Below are positions 1-41,212 of a DNA stretch of 64,000 nucleotides, in pieces; the first letter of the stretch is position 1; every line of letters starts with the position of its first letter. Under the pieces are notes generated by a model. That model was not told where the DNA came from and did no database searches. It saw only the letters and a list, made by a program, of their open reading frames with translations. The stretch is from a virus. The position numbers and the translations under genes are program-made. The stretch is taken from positions 23,210 through 87,209 of the IMG/VR virus record IMGVR_UViG_3300005264_000009, one strand, 5' to 3'.

Positions 1-191
1 GTATATGAGGATGAGAATGATTAAATTAAGTATGGTAATAAATCAAGTTAGGTATAGACTCTTTAATATGATTACAGCGAATTTCATAAGTAAAGATGTT
101 TTATATACAGAAGATGAAATTAAAATCGTAAAAGCTGAATTATGGGCTTTAAAAAACTTACAAAAAATGTATTAAAAAAGGGGTGTAAATT

Positions 192-554
192 ATGAGTATT
201 CAAAAGTGTGCTGGGTGTGTTTATGAACCAGAGGAGTGGAGTGAAATACATTATGGTCCTAAATGGAGTTATAAAGAGGGTTTGTGTAAAAAAGAAAATG
301 TTCTTGTTCGTATATATATAAATGTTCCAATAGATATTTGTAGTGATTATAAACAAAAAGATGTAGAGGAATTAAATAATGAAATATTGGAGTTGTGTAA
401 AAAGGCATATAAAAAACCTATTGTAAGTACAGGTAGTGGTTTACGTTGTTTCTTTTGTGATAAATACCAAACTGATGATGGTTTATTAAGGGATAGACAT
501 TACTCCGATTGTGATTTTTTAAAATATAAAAAAGTAATGAAAAAGTACAAGTAA
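192..554 (+). CDS. hypothetical Cys-rich phage protein (paralog of 565..1086)
   Basis: 120 aa ORF with RBS-like GGGGTG; N-terminus QKCxxCxYEP..W..IH and GLCxKxN are shared with the next ORF. Confidence 0.75.
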   Translation: MSIQKCAGCVYEPEEWSEIHYGPKWSYKEGLCKKENVLVRIYINVPIDICSDYKQKDVEELNNEILELCKKAYKKPIVSTGSGLRCFFCDKYQTDDGLLRDRHYSDCDFLKYKKVMKKYK

Positions 555-2794: not shown

Positions 2795-3370
2795 ATGGAT
2801 TTCAAAGATTTACAATTTGGAGATAGTGTACATTCTATATTAAACGGTTGGGGAACATACACAAGTAATGATTCTATTCACTATCTTGTTGATTTTCCAG
2901 ATGGTTTTACTAAAAAATATAATGTAAATGGTTTTTTCTTTGAACATGATATTAAACCTGAAATTATTGATGTTAAAAGAAGACATTGGCAACCAAAAAA
3001 AACAGATGACATGTATATAATTAATGCAAATGGTAAAATACATAATACTAAAGCAAGAGATGAAAAATGTTTGGAGACTGGTAGAATTTACCATACATAC
3101 AAACAAGCAAAACACGTATATGAAAAAACAATTAAACCATGCCAAAGATTAGCCTCTTGGATTAGTGAAAACGATCCTAATAATATATATGATATTAATT
3201 GGGGGGATAAAACACAAGGCAAATATTTCATTTATTACTATTATAAAAATTCTGAATGGCTTTTAAATTATACTTTAGAGCATCAAATAGTTGGAGTACC
3301 ATATATTTTATGTAAAAAAACAGCAGAAAAACTTGTAAATGGTCTTAACAATAAAACCATAATTTTATAA
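2795..3370 (+). CDS. hypothetical protein (paralog of 3446..4036)
   Basis: Shared MxFKDLxxGDxV, GWG.Y, DIKPEII, PCQR, GLNxKTI motifs. Confidence 0.8.
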   Translation: MDFKDLQFGDSVHSILNGWGTYTSNDSIHYLVDFPDGFTKKYNVNGFFFEHDIKPEIIDVKRRHWQPKKTDDMYIINANGKIHNTKARDEKCLETGRIYHTYKQAKHVYEKTIKPCQRLASWISENDPNNIYDINWGDKTQGKYFIYYYYKNSEWLLNYTLEHQIVGVPYILCKKTAEKLVNGLNNKTIIL

Positions 3371-7990: not shown

Positions 7991-8716
7991 ATGAAATATA
8001 TGGGAAGTAAAAGACGTATTGCCAAGTATATTTTACCTTATATTTTACAAGGTAGAAGTAAAAATCAGTGGTATATAGAGCCTTTTGTTGGTGGTGCTAA
8101 TATCATAGATAAGGTTAAGGGCAAAAGGCTTGGAAGTGATATAAATAACTATCTAATAGAGGCTTTAAAAGCTATTCAAGATGGTTGGCTACCACCAATG
8201 AAAATTACCGAAGAAGAGTATTATGATATTAAGAAAAATAAAGATAATTATCCTGATTATTTCGTGGGTTATGTTGGATTTACTATGAGTTTTGGTGCTA
8301 AATGGTTTGATGGTTATGCCAAAGGTGATAATAGAGATTATGCAAAACAGGCTTTTAAAAGTACAAAAAAACAAGCAACCAAACTTAAAGATATTATATT
8401 TAAAACATGTGAATATAACGAATTAGAAACACCTCCTAATAGTATTATTTATTGTGACCCACCTTATAAAGGCACAAAAGAATATAAAAATAAAAAATTT
8501 AATCATGATAAATTTTGGGAGTGGTGTAGAAAAAAAGTAAAAGAAGGACATAAAGTTTTTATAAGTGAGTACAATGCACCACCAGATTTTATTTGTATTT
8601 GGGAAAAAAAGGTAAAAATAACAACATCTTTAGATAATTATAAAACAAGTATAGAAAAATTATTCCAACATAAAAGCCAAGTTATAAAGCGAGAAAAACA
8701 AAGTTTATTATTTTAA
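7991..8716 (+). CDS. Dam/D12-class N6-adenine DNA methyltransferase
   Basis: KYMGSK, EPFVGG, YCDPPY. Confidence 0.9.
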   Translation: MKYMGSKRRIAKYILPYILQGRSKNQWYIEPFVGGANIIDKVKGKRLGSDINNYLIEALKAIQDGWLPPMKITEEEYYDIKKNKDNYPDYFVGYVGFTMSFGAKWFDGYAKGDNRDYAKQAFKSTKKQATKLKDIIFKTCEYNELETPPNSIIYCDPPYKGTKEYKNKKFNHDKFWEWCRKKVKEGHKVFISEYNAPPDFICIWEKKVKITTSLDNYKTSIEKLFQHKSQVIKREKQSLLF

Positions 8717-8726
8717 AAGGAGGATT

Positions 8727-9104
8727 ATGAAAATTTATTTAGCTGTACCTTACATGAGTGATGACATTAATATTATTGAAGAACGTGTCAGATTAGTTAA
8801 TGAAATGGCTGGTAAGATAATGGAACTTGGGCATACTGTATTTAGTCCAATTTCACACAGTCATCCCATATCAAAGACTATGGAAACAAAGGATGATGCT
8901 TTCTGGATCAAACAAGATTATTCTTTTATAAAATGGTGTGATGTTCTTTGTATTTATCAATTAACAGGATGGGAAGAATCAAAAGGTATTAAAAAAGAAA
9001 CAGCTTATGCTATGCTTTTAGATAAAACAGTATGTAATACTGAACATATATTTAAAAATAATATATATAATTGGAGAAATAAATATATTAAAGGAGTAAA
9101 ATGA
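8727..9104 (+). CDS. DUF1937 / nucleoside 2-deoxyribosyltransferase-like protein
   Basis: KIYLAVPY, FSPISHSHP, W...D..FI..CD, GWEESKG..KE. Confidence 0.75.
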   Translation: MKIYLAVPYMSDDINIIEERVRLVNEMAGKIMELGHTVFSPISHSHPISKTMETKDDAFWIKQDYSFIKWCDVLCIYQLTGWEESKGIKKETAYAMLLDKTVCNTEHIFKNNIYNWRNKYIKGVK

Positions 9105-9865
9105 AATTTATAAATAAAATAATTTGTGGGGATTGTTTAGAGGTGATGGATCAGCTTATTGCAAATAATGTAAAAGTGGATGCTATTATTACTGATCCAC
9201 CGTTCGGAACTATCAGTAATTCTTGGGATGTGGTAATTCCTATAGATAAAATGTGGGAAAGATTAAATAAATTAATAAAAAAGAAAGGGGCTACGGTTAT
9301 ATTCGGCACTGAACCATTCTGCTCAAAAGTTAGAATAGCAAATTTAGATAATTATAAGTATGATTGGGTTTGGGAAAAATCTGGTGTTGGGGGTTATCTT
9401 TTAGCAAAAACACGTCCCTTAACAAATTATGAAAATATAATGGTATTTTATCAAGCCCCTCTACATGGTAATGGTGGTGACGATAACGGAAATTATTATC
9501 CACAAGGTACTAAAAAAACAAAAAAATGGGTAAAAACACCAAGAAGAATCACTCCATGCAACAGATCAATATCTAAAAAAGAAGTAATATTACAAGATAC
9601 AACAAATTATCCTAAACGAATTTTACGTTTTAACAAAGAGCCTTTAAGTCTTCACTCTTCCCAAAAACCTTTAAATTTAATGGATTACTTGGTAAAAACG
9701 TACACTAAAGAGGGTGAAACAGTCCTTGACTTCACCTGCGGTTCAGGAAGTACACTTGTATCTTGCAAACGTAATAAAAGGCAATTTATAGGTATAGAAC
9801 AAGACAGTAAATTTGTAGATATATCTAAAAAAAGATTAAACAATATAACATTAAATTTATTTTAA
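9101..9865 (+). CDS. N4-cytosine/N6-adenine DNA methyltransferase (beta class)
   Basis: GDCL, TDPPFG, H.SQKP, VLDFTCGSGST. Confidence 0.9.
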   Translation: MKFINKIICGDCLEVMDQLIANNVKVDAIITDPPFGTISNSWDVVIPIDKMWERLNKLIKKKGATVIFGTEPFCSKVRIANLDNYKYDWVWEKSGVGGYLLAKTRPLTNYENIMVFYQAPLHGNGGDDNGNYYPQGTKKTKKWVKTPRRITPCNRSISKKEVILQDTTNYPKRILRFNKEPLSLHSSQKPLNLMDYLVKTYTKEGETVLDFTCGSGSTLVSCKRNKRQFIGIEQDSKFVDISKKRLNNITLNLF

Positions 9866-17736: not shown

Positions 17737-18411
17737 ATGGATCGTAACCATCAAATTACACCACACCTTAAAATTATGAAAAAAATTAAGAAAATCAAAA
17801 GTGATCGTAGTTTACAGGAATTATTAGTAAATAAAGATTGTACGTTTAAGTGCCCTATAAAAGGGTATCAAACTATAATCGAAATTTGCCATTACTGTAA
17901 CGTGTATAACTCTTGTGATGTATTTACTAAGGCAGAAAAGGTTTTGCTAAGTGAACATACATTACAATTACCAGTACCATATACTGTACCAAAAAAGGGG
18001 ACTAAAATGAAGAAAAAAGATGTAAAAGATGTAAAGGAAGAAAAAGATGTAAAGGAAGTTAAGGAAGTTAAGGAAGAAAAAGATGTAAAGGAAGTTAATA
18101 AAAATAAAGAAAAACCAAATGATCCTAACAAGGTCAGCCAAAAGAAATTTAAGGAACATTCCAACATCTTAAATAAAATTTTGGTTGAAAATAAATTAAA
18201 GAAAATCAAAAAAAGTAAATCAAAAAAACAATCAATAATGAACTTCATGGCATCTTTTACTGAATTAAATGATGCTAACCTTTTATATTTAATTCCAAGA
18301 GGAACTATCAATGTAATGTGTGTGTTCCTAAGTGATAGAATTGAATGGTTGGAAAAAGAAAAAGCAAAAAAAGAAAAGGAGGAAAAAGTAGAAAAAAATG
18401 TATCTAAATAA
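17737..18411 (+). CDS. hypothetical protein with Cys cluster and KDVKEE repeats
   Basis: 224 aa ORF after the promoters. Confidence 0.65.
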   Translation: MDRNHQITPHLKIMKKIKKIKSDRSLQELLVNKDCTFKCPIKGYQTIIEICHYCNVYNSCDVFTKAEKVLLSEHTLQLPVPYTVPKKGTKMKKKDVKDVKEEKDVKEVKEVKEEKDVKEVNKNKEKPNDPNKVSQKKFKEHSNILNKILVENKLKKIKKSKSKKQSIMNFMASFTELNDANLLYLIPRGTINVMCVFLSDRIEWLEKEKAKKEKEEKVEKNVSK

Positions 18412-19366
18412 TATCATTTCTTGTTTTGATGGTATAAGTTGTGCTCAAATTGCTCTTGAATATGCTGGTATTGTATTTGATAATTATTTTGCATCTGAAA
18501 CAGATAAATCTGCAATAAAAGTTACGCAAAGTAATTATCCTAATACAATACAGATTGGTGATATTACAAAAATAAATACCAATAAGTTACCACAAATAGA
18601 TTTGATTATTGGTGGTAGCCCTTGTCAAGGTTTTTCACAGTCGGGGAAAAAATTGAATTTTACCGATCCAAGAAGTAAATTATTTTTTGATTACGTTAAA
18701 CTTTTAAAAAAAATAAAACCTAAATATTTTTTATTAGAAAACGTAAAAATGAAAAAAAAATGGAGTGATACAATAACACAATATTTAGGTGTTCATCCAA
18801 TAGAAATAGATAGTACATTAGTTTCTGCCCAAAAAAGAAAAAGATTGTATTGGACGAACATACCAAATGTTACACAACCAAAAAACAAACATATTTTTCT
18901 TAAAGATATTATTGAAAATGATGTTAATACAAAGTATTTTTTAACAGCTAAAGATATAAATATTGAAAAAGCTAAAAAACAAAATATGGTTGTTGCTTTC
19001 ACCGAAAGAAGAACACGAGAAGCCAAAAGTATAAGAAAAGATTATCAAAAAAAGTATAATACTGATTTTTCGCCAAGAAGAGGTAAAGAATTAATACATA
19101 GAATAGATGGTAAAATGAATTGTTTAACAGCCACTTATTCATTGAAAGAACATACTTTACTTGATAAACAAATGAATTATAGGAAATTAACACCAATAGA
19201 ATTTGAGAGATTGCAAAATGTTCCTGATAATTACACACATTTATTAAGTGATAATTTAAGGTACAAAGTATTAGGTAATGGTTTTACAGTGTGTGTAATT
19301 GCACATATTTTAAAATGTATAAATAATAAGAATAATAAAATTAATGTAATAAAAAACTTATTTTAA
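18398..19366 (+). CDS. DNA (cytosine-5) methyltransferase
   Basis: FDGIS, GGSPCQ, LENV, QKRKRLYW, LTP.EFERLQ, LGNG. Confidence 0.92.
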   Translation: MYLNNIISCFDGISCAQIALEYAGIVFDNYFASETDKSAIKVTQSNYPNTIQIGDITKINTNKLPQIDLIIGGSPCQGFSQSGKKLNFTDPRSKLFFDYVKLLKKIKPKYFLLENVKMKKKWSDTITQYLGVHPIEIDSTLVSAQKRKRLYWTNIPNVTQPKNKHIFLKDIIENDVNTKYFLTAKDINIEKAKKQNMVVAFTERRTREAKSIRKDYQKKYNTDFSPRRGKELIHRIDGKMNCLTATYSLKEHTLLDKQMNYRKLTPIEFERLQNVPDNYTHLLSDNLRYKVLGNGFTVCVIAHILKCINNKNNKINVIKNLF

Positions 19367-19369
19367 GAG

Positions 19370-20401
19370 GTGAAAATGAATATTAACGATTTGAAAGATG
19401 CTTTAAATATTGTTAAACCAGCATTGAATCCAAATGGAATGAACACTGCATCAGAATATATTTACTTTTCTGGTGAAAAAGTAATGATTAGTGACCAATC
19501 TATGTGTATTCAAACAGATTTGGAAACATCATTTGATGCTTGGATTAAAGGTAAAGATTTAATAAATATTGTTTCTAAAATAAAAAACAATAAAATTAAA
19601 TTCAGTAAAAAAGATAACAATATTAATTTACAAACAAAAACGTCAAATATTAACTTTAAGTTAGAAGAAGTTATTGATGATTATAATACTTATATAAATA
19701 GTATTGTTGATGAAAGTACAAGTGATGATTATACCAATATACCAGATGACTTCTTGGAAAATATCTTGGTTGCATCAAAATATTGCCTTAGTGATGACTT
19801 TGATAGTTCTTTAGCTTGCGTGGGTGTTAAGGATGGTATTATAAGTGCAATGGATAAAAAACAAGCATTTACCACAACAAGTAAGATAGAAGTCGATGAT
19901 ATGCTATTAATGTGTACTACTGTTAAAAAAATAGTAGAAATTAAACCCACTAAATATTTTATATCTGAAAATTGGTATCACTTTAAAAATGATATATCGG
20001 TTATTTCTATAAGAAAAACTGATGGTGAGTTACCATCATTGCAGAAAATAACATCATTTACGGGGCAGAAATTCAATATTTATGCATCTATTCTTGATGA
20101 TATAACCCTTACAGCATCATTTACAGACCATTTTTTGACTTTTATTAAGGTAAAGTTAAGAGATAACAAAATCCAATTAAGTATTAATGCAGAGTCAGGA
20201 ACAATTAAAACACAAGCTAAAATAAATTATAGTGATGATGAATTAATTTTTAAAATTAATCCTGAATACTTTGCTAACTTAGTAGAGAATTGTACAGACT
20301 TTGAGATTAACGAGGATAGTACACTTCTAAAGGGTGTTTCTGATACGGCAATAATAGTAGCAGCCTTATTTAATACACAAGAGACGGAAACGTATGAATA
20401 A
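19370..20401 (+). CDS. dnaN: DNA polymerase sliding clamp (beta-clamp-like)
   Basis: 343 aa, three-domain beta-clamp-like pattern (L..AL..V..A, NPEYF...V); in replication cluster with DnaX-like loader. Confidence 0.7.
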   Translation: MKMNINDLKDALNIVKPALNPNGMNTASEYIYFSGEKVMISDQSMCIQTDLETSFDAWIKGKDLINIVSKIKNNKIKFSKKDNNINLQTKTSNINFKLEEVIDDYNTYINSIVDESTSDDYTNIPDDFLENILVASKYCLSDDFDSSLACVGVKDGIISAMDKKQAFTTTSKIEVDDMLLMCTTVKKIVEIKPTKYFISENWYHFKNDISVISIRKTDGELPSLQKITSFTGQKFNIYASILDDITLTASFTDHFLTFIKVKLRDNKIQLSINAESGTIKTQAKINYSDDELIFKINPEYFANLVENCTDFEINEDSTLLKGVSDTAIIVAALFNTQETETYE

Positions 20402-20489
20402 ACGTTTTAGATTGTACAATGGTGATTGCCTTGAAATTATGGATAGATTGATAGGTGAGAATGTTATGGGATATCTAATACATGGATAA
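20394..20489 (+). pseudogene. 31 aa N-terminal fragment of a beta-class DNA methyltransferase
   Basis: MNKRFRLYNGDCLEIMDRLIGENV then stop. Confidence 0.65.
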
Positions 20490-21291
20490 AAAAAACATTA
20501 AGGAGAAAATACCATACGGTGTGGTTATTAATGATAGCTATAGTTTGTATAATGGTGATTGCTTAGATGTCATGGACTATCTAATATCACAAAACATTAT
20601 ATGTGATGCTATTATCACAGACCCACCGTATGGTTGAGTTAGTACTACTGCTTGTTCATGGGATTCATTAATTCCATTTGAACCTATGTGGAATAAAATA
20701 TATAAACTTATTAAAGATAAAGGAACAATAGTTTTATTTGGAAGTGAACCTTTCAGTAGTCACTTACGTATGAGTAACATTAAAAATTATAGTTATGATT
20801 GGGTTTGGAATAAAAAAAAGGCAGGTAATATTTTCTTAATAAAAAGTCAACCCTTACGTGTACATGAAAATATAATAATTTTTAATGGTAACAAAGACAC
20901 TTATAATAGTCAAAAAACAAAAAGGAGTACAATAAAAAAATCAAAAAATTATGGTAGTGGTGAAACTATGCTTGGGGAACATAAAAGTAACAAAATATAT
21001 ACTTATAAAGATAGACATCCTATAAGTATAATAAAAGTAAGTAATGCAAGTCAAAAAAATAACTTACACCCCACACAAAAACCTGTTCGTTTATTAGAAT
21101 ACTTAGTTAAAACATATTCAAAAGAAAATGAACTTGTTTTAGACTTTACTACAGGGTCAGGAACAACAGGTGTAGCTTGTTTAAATAATAATCGAAGATT
21201 TATTGGTATTGAAAAAGAAAAAAAATATTGTAAAATAGCCAGTCAAAGATTAAATGAAGCATCTCAATGTTTTATATTTGAAGGGAGTTAA
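20482..21291 (+). pseudogene. beta-class DNA methyltransferase interrupted by in-frame TGA plus 2 extra codons after DPPYG (pseudogene or recoded gene)
   Basis: ...GDCL...TDPPYG*VS TTACSWD...HPTQKP...VLDFTTGSGTTG all in one frame; TGA at 20635-20637. Confidence 0.8.
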
Positions 21292-36647: not shown

Positions 36648-37754
36648 GTGAGAAAATTAGCTACAATACAAAGAATAAAAAATTTAACACCAATCAAAAA
36701 AGCTGATAGGATAGAATTAGCCTACATATTAGGTTGGGAGTGTGTAGTAAAAAAAGGGGAGTTCAAAATTAATGATTATTGTGTTTATTTTGAGGTTGAC
36801 TCCATTTTGCCAGAGAAAGAAGTCTTTGAATTTATGCGTCCAAGAAAATTCAAGGTGAAAACAGCTAAATTTAGAAAACAAATATCACAAGGGTTAGCTT
36901 TACCTATTTCTATATTAGATAAAAATATTGTTATTAAAGAGGGGATGGATCTAACAACAATATTAAATATCACTAAATACGATCCTGAAAAAATCAAAGA
37001 GTGTAAAAGAAGTAAGAGTAAAAATATATTTGTTAATTATATGATGAAGTATAAAATTTTTAGAAAATGTTACTTATTTATTTTTCCTAAATTAAAAGGT
37101 TGTTTTCCTGATTTTATACCTAAAACAGATGAAGAACGATTGCAAAACATACCAAATATAATAGAAAAAAATAATGGTGAAAACTTTTATTGTATGGAAA
37201 AATTAGATGGTCAAAGTTTAACTGTTTTTTATAATAATAAATTAAATAAATGGTATAAACCTTGGATAAATAATGCTTTTGGTGTTTGTTCAAGAAATAT
37301 TTGGAGGAAAAGAAAAGATATGTCTAATTGGTGGTTTGTTGTAAAAAACTTAGATATTGAAAGGAAGTTGAAAAAATACTGTAAACAAACAAAAACTAAC
37401 TTAGCTATCCAAGGTGAAATTATAGGACCTAATATACAAAATAATAGATATAATATAAAACAAAAGCAATTACATATTTTTTCTATTTTTAATATAGACA
37501 CACAAAAATACTTAAACTTCCATGATAAATCACATGTAATACATCAGTTAGGTTTAACAGAAGTTCCTTTTTATAATATAATTCAATTTAATACGTCAAT
37601 ACACACAGTAAAATGGTTTACAGAGCGAACTAATAAAAAGAGTAAGATTAATAACGAAGTCTTAATGGAAGGACTTGTCTATAGATCTATTAAAAATGAC
37701 GATATAAGTTTTAAAGTAATTAACCCTAATTTTTTATTAAAGTACAATTTGTAA
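36648..37754 (+). CDS. RNA ligase, DRB0094/Rnl5-like family
   Basis: MRKLATI, PI..AD.IELA, PKTDEER.QN, EKLDG (motif I), QGEI.GP, EG.V, SFKVI. Confidence 0.9.
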   Translation: MRKLATIQRIKNLTPIKKADRIELAYILGWECVVKKGEFKINDYCVYFEVDSILPEKEVFEFMRPRKFKVKTAKFRKQISQGLALPISILDKNIVIKEGMDLTTILNITKYDPEKIKECKRSKSKNIFVNYMMKYKIFRKCYLFIFPKLKGCFPDFIPKTDEERLQNIPNIIEKNNGENFYCMEKLDGQSLTVFYNNKLNKWYKPWINNAFGVCSRNIWRKRKDMSNWWFVVKNLDIERKLKKYCKQTKTNLAIQGEIIGPNIQNNRYNIKQKQLHIFSIFNIDTQKYLNFHDKSHVIHQLGLTEVPFYNIIQFNTSIHTVKWFTERTNKKSKINNEVLMEGLVYRSIKNDDISFKVINPNFLLKYNL

Positions 37755-37930
37755 AGGAGATAAATGAAACCAATATGTAACATATGTAAAAAACAAGTTG
37801 AATTTGATTTTACGTTAATGTGTTTTACTTGCTATAATAAGACTTGTAATAATTACCATAAAAATTTATATAGTTTAAAATCAAATAATAAAATATATGC
37901 TGATAAAACAGCATTTAAAAGGACTAAATA

Positions 37931-38668
37931 ATGGAAATTAATTATATTGAATATAAAAATAAGGCTTATTGCAAATCTATTGGTTGTGATAAATTTTACT
38001 GTAAAGATTGTGGTGCTTATAGATTTCACGAGTATTTACAGGAAAACAATTTTTTAATAATTAAAAAAGATTCTGAAATTATTACAAGAAATAATTATGA
38101 TTTAATGTTCAGGAAAAAAGTAAAACATGATTTTATTAATTATATTTTTGTTAATAAAAAAACAAAAAAGGTACTGGCTCAACCCCCTTTTAAAACCACA
38201 AAATATGTGTCAATAATAGAAAAGGATAATGAAGTTTTAATTACAGATTATATAAAAGATAAAGAAGTAAAAATGGTTTATATAATTGATAAAGATGAAT
38301 GGCATTTGATAAGTACACAAAATGTTATTAAACCATCTTTTAAAAATTTAATAGCAAAACAAATAAGTAATGTAGCAAAAAACAGAAAAGATATTTTATC
38401 TGCTTTAGATGATTATTTTAAGGGATACAGTGATAAACAAATAGTAAGTGATAATACTACTATTTATAATATACCAGTGTTTAATATAAAAGTGTATGTT
38501 AATGTACTTGATACACACATTACTTTTTCTCTTATGGGACAAATGAAAAAGATAAATACTGTATATAGTTTTGTAAATGAACAAGATATACCTTGTATTA
38601 TGAAAGATTTAGATACTAAAATATACAATGTTTTAATTGAAGGTGATTTAAATGATCAAAATATTTAA
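37931..38668 (+). CDS. hypothetical protein
   Basis: 245 aa; N-terminus paralogous to 36055..36498. Confidence 0.7.
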   Translation: MEINYIEYKNKAYCKSIGCDKFYCKDCGAYRFHEYLQENNFLIIKKDSEIITRNNYDLMFRKKVKHDFINYIFVNKKTKKVLAQPPFKTTKYVSIIEKDNEVLITDYIKDKEVKMVYIIDKDEWHLISTQNVIKPSFKNLIAKQISNVAKNRKDILSALDDYFKGYSDKQIVSDNTTIYNIPVFNIKVYVNVLDTHITFSLMGQMKKINTVYSFVNEQDIPCIMKDLDTKIYNVLIEGDLNDQNI

Positions 38669-38753
38669 GGGTGATTGTTTAACTGTAATGGATCAATTAA
38701 TATTGGATGGTGTTAAGGTGGATGCAGTAATAACAGATCCACCTTTACAATAA
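38652..38753 (+). pseudogene. N-terminal remnant of beta-class DNA methyltransferase
   Basis: MIKIFKGDCLTVMDQLILDGVKVDAVITDPPLQ*, closely similar to N-terminus of 9101..9865. Confidence 0.8.
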
Positions 38754-38768
38754 GGGGTACAATTAAAT

Positions 38769-39386
38769 ATGAAAAATAAAATAATTAAAGAGTATATTGC
38801 AGGAGTTACCTCTTTAAGAGAGGTTGCTATTATCTGTGGGACTGACCATCACAATGTGAAGAGAACATTAATTAAAGCAAATATAACGATAGTAAGAGCC
38901 AAGACAAAAGCACATACAAAAGCACATTGTAAAGCTATATCTAAGGCATGCAAAGGTAGAAAATGTTGGGTTAAGGGTAAAAAAATGCCAAAAGCATCAC
39001 TTTACAAGAACATGTCTGCACACTTAAAGTGGGACGTTACATCAGAATGGTTGGCGAAGTTTGATGACATCGAAAAACTTAAATTTATAAACAGGGCTAT
39101 AACAAACAGGGATGGTAGGTATCCGTTTACAACAGATGAGTATAAAGAATACATAAATAAGTTTTATAATGATCTGAAATTCAACACACTTTACAAGAAG
39201 TGGTTGGGGACTAACAATAAATATTTGAAACCATCATTAGATCATATAATTCCAAAGTCAAAAGGTGGTACTAATAACTTAGATAATTTACAGTTTCTAA
39301 GTTGGTTTGAAAATAGATGTAAAAGTGATATGTCTCAAAAGGAATGGGATTTACTTAAGAATAATATAAGCGATTATTTAATGTGA
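38769..39386 (+). mobile_element. free-standing HNH homing endonuclease with NUMOD3-like motif
   Basis: PSLDHIIPKSKGGTNNLDNLQFL...EN..K; HTKAHCKAISKACKG. Confidence 0.85.
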
Positions 39387-39425
39387 AGATTAAATAATAT
39401 ATCAGGTAATTCACTTTTTTATTAA
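39387..39425 (+). pseudogene. probable C-terminal remnant of the same methyltransferase
   Basis: RLNNISGNSLFY* vs RLNNITLNLF* at the end of 9101..9865; same frame as 38652. Confidence 0.55.
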
Positions 39426-39432
39426 AAACTTC

Positions 39433-39462
39433 TTGACTTCCTAATAAAAACGTGTTAAGACT
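39433..39462 (+). promoter_or_regulatory. sigma70-type promoter
   Basis: TTGACT-TCCTAATAAAAACGTGT-TAAGAC. Confidence 0.65.
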
Positions 39463-39514
39463 TTAATCAAGATAACAAAGGTATTTTTAATTACTACTTT
39501 ATAAAGGAGCTATT

Positions 39515-39862
39515 ATGGGTAGAGAGTTAAAACGTGTAAGCAAAGATTTTACGTGGGAATTAAATAAGATTTGGAAGGGTTATATAAATTCTGCTACATT
39601 AGAAGAACCACCTGCTGGTAAATACTATCAATTATGGGAAACAGTATCAGAAGGAAGCCCTGTATCACCAGCATTTAAAACAAAATTTGAATTAGCAAAA
39701 TATTTAGCTAAAGTTAAACACTTAAATATATCTGATTATAATACTTGGTTACATTTTTTAAATAATTATACTTGGAGTGTTTCCAGTGTAGGTACAAATG
39801 GAAAACTTATGAGTGGTGTTGAATATTTATATTATAAAGATAAAGATAAAGGAAAAATTTAA
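39515..39862 (+). CDS. hypothetical phage protein
   Basis: AAGGAG RBS; YQLWETVSEGSPVSP motif. Confidence 0.75.
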   Translation: MGRELKRVSKDFTWELNKIWKGYINSATLEEPPAGKYYQLWETVSEGSPVSPAFKTKFELAKYLAKVKHLNISDYNTWLHFLNNYTWSVSSVGTNGKLMSGVEYLYYKDKDKGKI

Positions 39863-41173
39863 ATGGAAACATTAAAAACGGTATATGAACAATTAGAAAT
39901 AATTAAAAAAACAAGTAGTAAAATTAAAAAAGAAGAACTTATTAAAAAATATGCTAAAGATGATACTTTTAAAACTGTTTTAGTATTTGCATACAATCCT
40001 TACATGCAATATAAAATTAAAAAAATACCAAAAGAAAAAGTAATATCCGAATTTTCTATAAATAATATTTTTACCTTTTTAACTACTCTTTCAAATAAAA
40101 AAGGTGCTACCAATGAAGATTATTACAAATTAGGAAGCCTTTGCAATATTGATGATGAAACATACAATGTAATTCATCGTGTGGTAAACAAAGATTTGAA
40201 GTGTGGTTTTTCAGCAAAAACAATTAATAAGGCTATTCCTTATTGTATTCCTGTCGTGCCTTATATGCGTTGTAGTAACGAAAAGAAATTAAAACATATT
40301 GATTATCCTGCTATTGTACAAGAAAAAGCAGATGGGGTTTTTGTAAATGTAATAATTGACAATAATAATGGAAATGGTATTAAAGTTGTTACCAGAAATG
40401 GTAAAGAAGTTCATCAATTAAATCATTTAAAACACTTATTTAATACAGAATTAGATGGCGTTTTTATGGGTGAATTAGTTGTTATAGAAAATAATATACT
40501 AATACTTAGTAGAAAAAAGGGTAATGGCATTATTAATTCATGTTTACATGGTACATGTTCACCAGTTGATTCTGCTAAAATACGCATACTTGTATGGGAT
40601 GTTATACCACTTATAAATTTTTATGATGGTATTCCTTGTAATATACCATATATTGAAAGATTTAATCAATGTAGAAATACTGTTAAAAAAATCAAACATA
40701 GATTTATCAAAACAATAAAAACAAAAAAAGTAAATAATATTGATGAAGCAAGAGAGTTTTATACTTTAATGCGTTCAGAGGGTAAAGAAGGTGCTGTTCT
40801 TAAAAATTATAATTTAATTTGGAAAAATCATACATCCAATGATCAAATTAAATTAAAAAATGAAATGGATGTGGAATTAAAGATTGTTGATATTCAAGCA
40901 GGTAAAGAGGGAACAAAATATGAAGACTGTTTGGGTGCTTTACTGTGTGAATCTAAGTGTGGTTCTTTAAAAGTATCAGTAGGTAGTGGTTTTACAGATA
41001 AAGAGAGGCATCAAGATTGGCAAGCAAGAATAAACCGTATAATTACAGTAACTTGTGAGTCGGTAATTACTGACAAGAAAAAAAGTACAAGTTCTTTATT
41101 TTTACCACGATTTAAAGAATTGCGTGAAGATAAAGACATAGCTGATACTTTACAAGAAATATTGGAAAGGTAA
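39863..41173 (+). CDS. ATP-dependent DNA ligase
   Basis: QEKADG (motif I), TRNG, MGEL, EGAVLK, KLK, VGSGFTD, LFLPRF. Confidence 0.93.
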   Translation: METLKTVYEQLEIIKKTSSKIKKEELIKKYAKDDTFKTVLVFAYNPYMQYKIKKIPKEKVISEFSINNIFTFLTTLSNKKGATNEDYYKLGSLCNIDDETYNVIHRVVNKDLKCGFSAKTINKAIPYCIPVVPYMRCSNEKKLKHIDYPAIVQEKADGVFVNVIIDNNNGNGIKVVTRNGKEVHQLNHLKHLFNTELDGVFMGELVVIENNILILSRKKGNGIINSCLHGTCSPVDSAKIRILVWDVIPLINFYDGIPCNIPYIERFNQCRNTVKKIKHRFIKTIKTKKVNNIDEAREFYTLMRSEGKEGAVLKNYNLIWKNHTSNDQIKLKNEMDVELKIVDIQAGKEGTKYEDCLGALLCESKCGSLKVSVGSGFTDKERHQDWQARINRIITVTCESVITDKKKSTSSLFLPRFKELREDKDIADTLQEILER

Positions 41174-41183
41174 AAAAAACTAC

Positions 41184-41212
41184 TTGACTTTTTAATAAGA
41201 ACGTGTTACAAT
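41184..41212 (+). promoter_or_regulatory. sigma70-type promoter
   Basis: TTGACT-TTTTAATAAGAACGTGT-TACAAT. Confidence 0.75.

Follow-up and report, generated by a model that had tools for sequence, protein, structure and literature searches.

Selfish nucleases usually spare their hosts by residing in introns, in inteins or at intergenic sites. In phage T4, the Seg and Mob proteins are free-standing homing endonucleases that spread by intronless homing, in which repair of the break is accompanied by co-conversion of the flanks. A mobile cassette formed by MobA and gene 60 of T4 is said to have been described by Bonocora and colleagues in 2011. The subject of this work is an HNH endonuclease gene found between the two ends of a DNA methyltransferase (MTase) gene of the beta class (N6_N4). 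The locus lies at positions 38652-39425 of a 64,000-nt stretch, hereafter "the window", of the IMG/VR virus record IMGVR_UViG_3300005264_000009, which is 87,209 bp long and has an estimated completeness of 63%.

In the T4 system, the HNH element supplies the downstream gene with an N-terminal extension and a bypass gap, according to the accessible part of Manning and Atkins (10.1101/2022.08.31.505936); that part reports MobA-type cassettes in topoisomerase genes only and makes no mention of methyltransferases. The accessible part of a 2016 review by Atkins (PMC5009743) states that no natural in-frame stop-hop is known. A second precedent is found in mitochondria, where endonuclease open reading frames (ORFs) that bring a replacement gene end occur in atp6 of Allomyces and in atp6, atp9, cox2 and nad3 of Glomus, as described in the accessible portion of PMC3630166. 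No description of an HNH cassette in MTase genes was found in a literature search from which subscription journals were largely absent, a result that is not proof of absence.

We consider it likely that the locus at 38652-39425 is a worn-down homing cassette of a kind that lives in the DPPYG-coding site of N6_N4 MTase genes. The canonical cassette is made of the HNH gene and a short spacer, followed by a replacement 5' end of the MTase gene, which spans start codon to DPPYG, and by an insert of 1-11 nt with a stop. Invasion would turn the recipient's own 5' end into a dead upstream stub, and the sequence after the insert would be the MTase body of the recipient. The nuclease is predicted to cut insert-free DNA that encodes DPPYG-TTACKWD; with the target disrupted in both copies, the carrier would be protected from its own nuclease. 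The window copy would keep the recipient-derived stub and the HNH gene, and would have lost the replacement 5' end, the insert and nearly the whole MTase body, either by later deletion or by imprecise repair during invasion of a divergent paralog similar to the intact MTase gene found at position 9101 of the window.

How does such a cassette compare with the described systems? T4 Seg and Mob share with it a stand-alone nuclease gene beside the target gene; however, they lie between genes and have no duplicated gene end. By architecture, the closest known system would be MobA/gene 60. Both have an HNH homing-endonuclease gene within a phage gene and equip the downstream part with a new N-terminal coding segment; in both, an apparently untranslated insert is found at the presumed nuclease target, with a Gly take-off codon and a stop leading to a matched Gly codon. 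The differences are that the MTase cassette targets a DNA MTase and not a topoisomerase, and that invasion does not yield two working genes: what lies upstream is a dead duplicate of 25-45 codons, and the downstream gene is complete. Furthermore, the gap of 1-11 nt is too short for a stem-loop like that of gene 60, whose gap measures 50 nt. The window copy departs further from MobA, as the protected gene has been lost altogether.

The mitochondrial ORFs, as presented in the accessible portion of the source, are a mirror image of the MTase cassette. They too combine a free-standing endonuclease ORF with a foreign host-gene end that functionally replaces the native end, and the native duplicate is left beside it; however, it is the C-terminus that is replaced, and the native C-terminus is left downstream. 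Their endonucleases are of the LAGLIDADG or GIY-YIG type, they lack a stop-containing insert, and they are organellar and not from phages. The HNH family would represent a third solution in phages, that of bringing a spare front end for the invaded gene; earlier descriptions of this strategy concern the mirror-image elements of fungal mitochondria and, in related form, T4 MobA.

The stub–HNH–remnant locus

Both ends of a 9101-like MTase gene flank the HNH gene at 38652-39425, a locus placed between a 245-aa ORF (37931-38668) and a 115-aa ORF (39515-39862). The features of the locus are the following:

38652..38753, + strand: displaced 5' MTase stub, 9101-like N6_N4, 33 codons, ending in DPPLQ and a stop codon, with its own ATG and the upstream GAAGGTGA kept
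38714..38745, + strand: inverted repeat of 9 bp without mismatch within the stub, AAGGTGGAT / ATCCACCTT (KVD versus DPP codons)
38745..38768, + strand: stub/HNH junction, the broken DPP|YG target region, with TAA, two TACAAT copies, AAGGGG and GGTACAATTAAA
38769..39386, + strand: HNH endonuclease gene, intact, 205 aa (Pfam HNH; family alignment)
39386..39425, + strand: 3' MTase remnant, 9101-like, RLNNISGNSLFY and a stop codon; its first base is the last base of the HNH stop codon

The stub ORF is translated as MIKIFKGDCLTVMDQLILDGVKVDAVITDPPLQ up to its stop. Pfam detects no domain in it; tblastn relates it to an MTase of Psychrobacter phage D'Alembert (E 5e-8) and to the window paralog at 9101 (E 9e-8), and it aligns to positions 2-31 of an MTase hidden Markov model (HMM; E 3e-6, 6 targets). 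After the HNH TGA, the same frame reads RLNNISGNSLFY up to a stop at 39425, a 12-codon remnant of an MTase 3' end. When the last 19 coding nt of the 9101 gene were searched for in the window with up to two mismatches, the only matches were the gene itself and 39386-39404 (17/19 nt); the chance expectation is 0.06 per window, and two matches were found in 0 of 100 shuffles. An earlier note, made from the letters of the window alone, had pointed out the N-terminal stub, the HNH ORF and the C-terminal stub, and these searches, together with the Pfam match of the HNH ORF, confirm the presence of the three pieces. A functional N6_N4 MTase (PF01555) is not encoded at the locus: motif IV and motif I are not in one readable gene, and the dead copy keeps only HMM positions 2-31 and the last 12 codons or so.

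The HNH ORF matches Pfam HNH (PF01844) with 25.3 bits (cut-off, 21.4) at residues 157-177, and the HNH core is found at residues 154-186. It also matches phrog_1035 (3.4e-12) and six further HNH PHROGs. A NUMOD3 match at residues 48-72 is below threshold (15.3 bits, with the cut-off at 20.4; E 0.02); many close homologs carry a precomputed PF07460 match. The AlphaFold (AF2) model has a pLDDT of 88.6 and a beta-beta-alpha core (strands 155-159 and 174-178; helix 179-183). Residues D158, H159, N173 and N182 are invariant across a family alignment of 29 sequences, in which the window protein keeps 27/27 invariant columns. The HNH gene is thus intact and apparently functional. At E<=1e-3, Foldseek yielded no whole-chain match in the PDB, and its weak rows were to HNH domains; when the family profile was searched against PDB sequences, weak matches to the HNH domain of Cas9 were the only result. 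The family comprises 535 proteins at E<=1e-3 (939 candidates). In two homologs, P0111 and P0088, the N-terminal end of an MTase is fused in frame to the HNH protein.

Mobile introns and inteins were also considered as carriers. Rfam detects no group I or group II intron core at E<=1 in 38300-39800, and Pfam detects no Hint/intein domain. When 38400-39600 was scanned for promoters and terminators, the junction showed no site, and a terminator was not detected. No tRNA gene is present in the 64-kb window, so that no suppressor tRNA is visible within it. We propose that the HNH gene is translated from its own ATG, 15 nt past the TAA of the stub, possibly by re-initiation, since the stub keeps its ATG and the upstream GAAGGTGA.

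Several details of the junction had been singled out in the earlier note. Stub, HNH ORF and C-terminal stub do share one frame in the window; however, chance may account for this, and the arrangement is not kept in two relatives with remnants, VnaP (three pieces in different frames) and L029 (remnant in another frame). The span of 774 nt is correctly given and close to the 765 nt of the intact paralog, but similar length is not conserved, as the span in VnaP is 945 nt. Two TACAAT copies (38746-51 and 38758-63), CAA codons around the TAA, and the sequence GGT ACA ATT AAA at 38756-67, which reads GTIK in another frame, are present as described, though none of them was shown to stand out from chance. 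The GTIK codons resemble GGA ACT ATC AGT of 9101, a likeness consistent with the stubs of relatives, many of which extend as far as the CKWD codons but have lost the YGTTA segment or carry other sequence in its place.

The hairpin proposed at the junction, CCACCUU/AAGGGG (AAGGGG lies at 38752-57), did not withstand analysis: its energy is -5.3 kcal/mol (z -0.44), a value equalled or bettered by 62 of 200 shuffles. In the fold of 38700-38790, the structure of minimum free energy (MFE) pairs AAGGUGGAU (38714-22) with AUCCACCUU (38737-45). This 9-bp stem inside the stub (MFE -15.8 kcal/mol, z -2.17, 5/200 shuffles) out-competes the claimed hairpin. The GTGGAT (Val-Asp) and ATCCAC (Asp-Pro) codons of MTases of this type are reverse complements, and give a built-in inverted repeat just 5' of DPPY, at 38714-38745 and at 9161-9195.

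A hairpin of another kind is found in relatives. An extended -10 box is present in 11 of 59 regions upstream of HNH genes, compared with 3.1% of 1180 control segments, and hairpin arms of the form TCCCAnTT/AAnTGGGA were detected in roughly ten loci. A promoter-in-hairpin module thus precedes the nuclease gene in a subset of the HNH relatives, a trait that may be compared with T4 Seg and Mob; in those relatives the hairpin that encloses the extended -10 box would control expression. The window copy is devoid of both arms of the module. A tentative observation, which relies on a short alignment, is that its TACAAT boxes align with the TATAAT box and the loop of the module.

Related loci and evidence for mobility

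A search of viral contigs with the single HNH sequence found nothing. With the family alignment, 151 relatives were detected among 322 matched stretches, and 80 loci were kept. Removal of identical proteins left 72 distinct HNH loci: 69 from IMG/VR, the Vibrio natriegens phage VnaP, the Pseudoalteromonas marina phage H101, and the window. MTase sequences were sought in the loci by tblastn and by means of an HMM that represents 23 uninterrupted MTases, and the loci fell into the classes listed below; seven assignments were made by hand (L026, L050, L078, L056, L058, VnaP and the window, which amount to 3 of 49, 2 of 7 and 2 of 3 in the first, second and fourth classes):

Complete MTase that starts some tens of nt past the HNH stop and is broken at the DPPYG codons: 49 loci
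Uninterrupted MTase downstream: 7 loci
MTase 598 nt away: 1 locus
C-terminal remnant only (window, VnaP, L029): 3 loci
No MTase: 10 loci
Flank too short: 2 loci

An N6_N4 MTase gene is therefore found beside the HNH gene in 57 of the 72 loci, and an upstream MTase 5' stub was detected by the HMM in 39. The usual order is stub, HNH, whole MTase, and not stub, HNH, tail. VnaP shows the same order as the window, and its GenBank annotation reads 'DNA methylase' (40 aa), HNH, 'DNA methylase' (31 aa); in H101, a degenerate stub and the HNH gene are found with no remnant. The cassette would explain the many tiny 'DNA methylase' ORFs beside HNH genes, as well as apparently broken phage methylases.

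Eight pairs of cassettes were compared at the nucleotide level. A strong contrast between the cassette and its surroundings was found in four of them (L008/L010, L015/L018, L042/L045 and L045/L048), with the following identities:

Upstream of HNH, including the stub: 35-42%
HNH: 81-99%
Spacer: 91-100%
MTase N-terminal part up to the insert: 98-100%
Positions +1..60 after the insert: 72-87%
Positions +61..160: 62-77%
Positions +161..360: 44-53%

Near-identical cassettes in unrelated flanks, with identity that fades gradually into the MTase body, are the signature expected of homing. Because of both traits, we read the mobile unit as the HNH gene, the spacer, the replacement MTase 5' end and the insert, whereas the stub and the MTase body would be the recipient's own. 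The stretch past the insert over which identity falls off may then be read as a co-conversion tract. Unrelated contexts together with flank co-conversion, as expected of a homing gene, were thus found for relatives in four of the eight pairs. Both window stubs are 9101-like, as one would expect of the ends of the recipient's own gene. In the L015/L018 pair, the shared sequence starts 26 nt before the HNH ATG, at GTAAGTAAATGGGAT, which resembles the (C)KWD codons of MTases.

The earlier note had proposed a homing endonuclease aimed at the sequence that encodes DPPY. The mobility of the cassettes, their association with MTase genes and the disruption of both DPPYG copies argue in favor of this proposal. 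In sum, the observations of that note were largely right, and their interpretation is partly supported.

The insert, the derived state of the window copy and rival explanations

MTase genes found after HNH genes are interrupted, within the DPPYG codons or immediately past them, by 1-11 nt that include a stop, and 51 distinct junctions were collected. The codon that precedes the stop is Gly in 35 of the 51. In 25 of these 35 Gly junctions, a GGN landing codon occurs 6-10 nt further on and the frame continues as (G)TTACKWD; three more, judged by eye, have it at +5. The frame changes across the insert in 19 of the 51 junctions. Stop codon usage is TGA 23, TAG 15 and TAA 13. In another 12 junctions the insert lies inside DPP|Y and the take-off codon is Pro; read-through could not rescue the enzyme in these cases, because the gap falls inside the catalytic motif. 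A matched landing codon is found in one of the 12. We give somewhat better than even chances to the idea that ribosomes hop over the insert in canonical copies. The cassette ties a nuclease to short stop-containing gaps in phage methylase genes, and offers dozens of natural variants for the study of short ribosome hops. After the HNH gene at 38652-39425, no gap with take-off, stop and landing codons is found, because the downstream MTase is gone.

Two trivial causes of the inserts were discarded. An alternative genetic code does not fit stops that are confined to one site and that include all three stop codons. An assembly artefact does not fit an architecture that is repeated in many independent contigs and in two GenBank phages.

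A different interpretation of the inserts is that the cassette kills the MTase it invades. Ribosomes would then never get past the inserts, which would be scars of repair or marks of immunity, intact ORFs would indicate recent invasions, and the order stub, HNH, remnant would be the normal end state of decay. High mobility leaves room for many recent invasions, with near-identical HNH genes beside MTase bodies that are 44-56% identical; yet the replacement N-terminal part travels with HNH through deep divergence and is kept as an MTase-like ORF with its start codon and DPPYG (pN 0.198 versus pS 0.669). Likewise, the downstream MTases of L059, L061 and L046 carry further breaks, most or all of the MTase is lost in 13 of the 72 loci, and the Pro junctions mostly lack a landing codon. 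Against this stand the Gly junctions with their landing codons, the use of all three stop codons with varying frames, and the conservation of the (G)TTACKWD codons in the new frame right after the insert. Altogether we regard the killing of the MTase as unlikely, though of the competing explanations it is the one that survives best.

To place the window copy among its relatives, a maximum-likelihood tree was built with IQ-TREE from 58 of the 72 HNH proteins, with the 14 partial sequences excluded. The tree was midpoint-rooted for drawing only, and the direction of change rests on parsimony. The window HNH is sister to H101 (99/93), within a 16-row clade (99/96) that contains 11 canonical forms. 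The VnaP HNH groups with canonical L019 (95/76), and the HNH of L029 with canonical L030 and L039 (100/98). The remnant-only state thus requires three separate changes on the HNH tree. Because they are nested separately among canonical forms, we consider the window, VnaP and L029 to be derived copies; for the window copy, our conclusion is that it represents a decayed cassette of derived origin that probably lost its downstream MTase. A nuclease gene left among gene debris would be the ordinary end of such an element, and the window locus is of value because it leads to the nuclease partner of a widespread cassette and to the complete architecture of that cassette.

A number of observations weigh against a worn-down homing cassette:

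(i). Each of the three remnant-only loci has its remnant starting 0-14 nt past the stop of HNH. This speaks against random later deletions, because such deletions do not predict it, and we lean to the view that a one-step imprecise event would fit as well as or better than a later deletion.

(ii). Four of the eight pairs (L016/L008, L038/L050, L027/L044 and L048/L049) show a weak contrast between the cassette and the MTase body.

(iii). Values of pN/pS do not set the stubs (0.34) apart from the functional parts (N-terminal part, 0.30; C-terminal part, 0.41; HNH, 0.31). The index fails to discriminate because synonymous sites are saturated.

(iv). In L007, the uninterrupted sites of two MTases indicate either that the target is narrower than the motif or that the nuclease is tolerated or the copies are protected in some other way.

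(v). No close relative of the phage or of the HNH copy was found in the collections searched, and the boundaries and history of the window copy are thus deduced from more distant cassettes. The top HNH match is H101, with 62% identity; blastn of 37000-41200 matched only pieces of VnaP and D'Alembert. The upstream 245-aa ORF and the DNA ligase had no relatives in viral contigs, and the 245-aa ORF had no tblastn match among phages. The window DNA ligase shows at most 38% identity to those of Campylobacter T4-like phages.

Some of these loci deserve separate mention. Remnants were noted at 39386 in the window, at 4625-4640 in L001 and at 1598-1645 in L029, with lengths of about 12, 23-31 and 45 codons, respectively. 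The two MTases of L007 (156-1614) are in tandem, carry an uninterrupted DPPYGTTACKWD, and lie just upstream of a cassette of stub, HNH and interrupted MTase. The uninterrupted MTases found after HNH genes (L022, L053, L054, L060 and L079) mostly deviate from GTTACK, with sequences such as YNSTQNSWD, YETTKCSWD and FGITACKWD. The deviating residues of the DPPY region might protect the site by sequence change in place of an insert.

The earlier note had favored a one-step event: a free-standing HNH gene would have replaced the core of a 9101-like MTase gene after a break at DPPY, with the frame kept functional by stop-hopping or read-through. The frame shared by all pieces and the CAA codons that flank the TAA fit this explanation, and the remnant starts mentioned above suit a one-step join. 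VnaP and L029, however, do not hold one frame over their three pieces. As a mode of spread, core replacement is contradicted by the usual product, which is a complete MTase downstream of HNH (49 of 72 loci), and by the remnant-only forms, which arose at least three separate times inside canonical clades. Joining the C-terminal stub would also need a second recoding event at the HNH TGA, and the C-terminus of the window HNH protein coincides with that of its relatives. By script, the stub shares the frame of HNH in 20 of 39 loci (p 0.015), or 19 of 39 once a mis-pick in L007 is removed, which is above one third; the excess is not corrected for kinship, and no matched codons are found around the stop at the other in-frame one-stop junctions, an observation that also disfavors the claim of stop-hopping into HNH. 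One-step core replacement is, in our view, improbable for the window copy.

Nonetheless, some in-frame history at the left junction cannot be dismissed. In L020, L033, L042, L044 and L078 (about 2930-3020 in each), the in-frame stub continues into the HNH ORF without a stop. The nuclease of these five loci would use the methylase start codon and be made as a fusion, as in P0111 and P0088, and such fusions are also in line with core replacement.

The idea that HNH and the neighboring MTase form a restriction-modification-like or domesticated pair, and not a selfish element, has very little to recommend it: although the two genes are adjacent and on the same strand in 57 of 72 loci and the phage carries many MTases, HNH genes that are 94-99% identical lie beside the divergent MTase bodies mentioned above, which means that nuclease and methylase specificity are not inherited together, and neither a duplicated 5' stub nor a disruption placed exactly in the catalytic motif is a feature of restriction-modification operons, nor does the HNH gene fit any PADLOC defence model.

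Other methyltransferase genes in the window

Three further features of the window are related to the homing cassette proposed here:

9101..9865, + strand: intact paralogous N6_N4 MTase, DPPFGTISNSWD, without insert (PF01555, 5e-25); nearest relative of both stubs
20394..20489, + strand: second MTase 5' stub with no HNH gene after it, followed by ATGGGATAT, which by eye is like the left-end signature of cassettes
20482..21291, + strand: third N6_N4 MTase, with a 9-nt stop insert, TGA GTT AGT, at 20635-20643, directly after DPPYG

The MTase at 20482 appears to have the protected-allele form found downstream of HNH genes elsewhere, and its insert is a partial match to take-off and landing codons of the MobA type. 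A link between this insert and the HNH gene had been suspected in the earlier note, and the link holds: in 49 of the 72 loci, the MTase that directly follows HNH has an insert of this kind too.

These alleles allow a broader and more tentative proposal, which we see as possible and less probable than its opposite. The HNH family would stand beside MobA/gene 60 as a second natural system of that type, and a much larger one, in which a replacement 5' end and a ribosome-hopped gap of 1-11 nt spare the host gene. The stranded HNH gene at 38769 would act in trans, cutting insert-free MTase alleles of co-infecting phages and thus favoring the unlinked allele at 20482.

The region 20394-20500 contains, in order, a stub (MNKRFRLYNGDCLEIMDRLIGENV), ATGGGATAT, codons for G-Y-L-I like those of the usual HNH C-terminus, and the interrupted MTase. 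It looks like a cassette whose HNH gene has been deleted, with short matches that were judged by eye. At least four DNA MTase genes are present in the 64 kb (7991-8716, 9101-9865, 18398-19366 and 20482-21291), in addition to the dead copy; by class they are one D12, two N6_N4 and one C5 with GGSPCQGFS.

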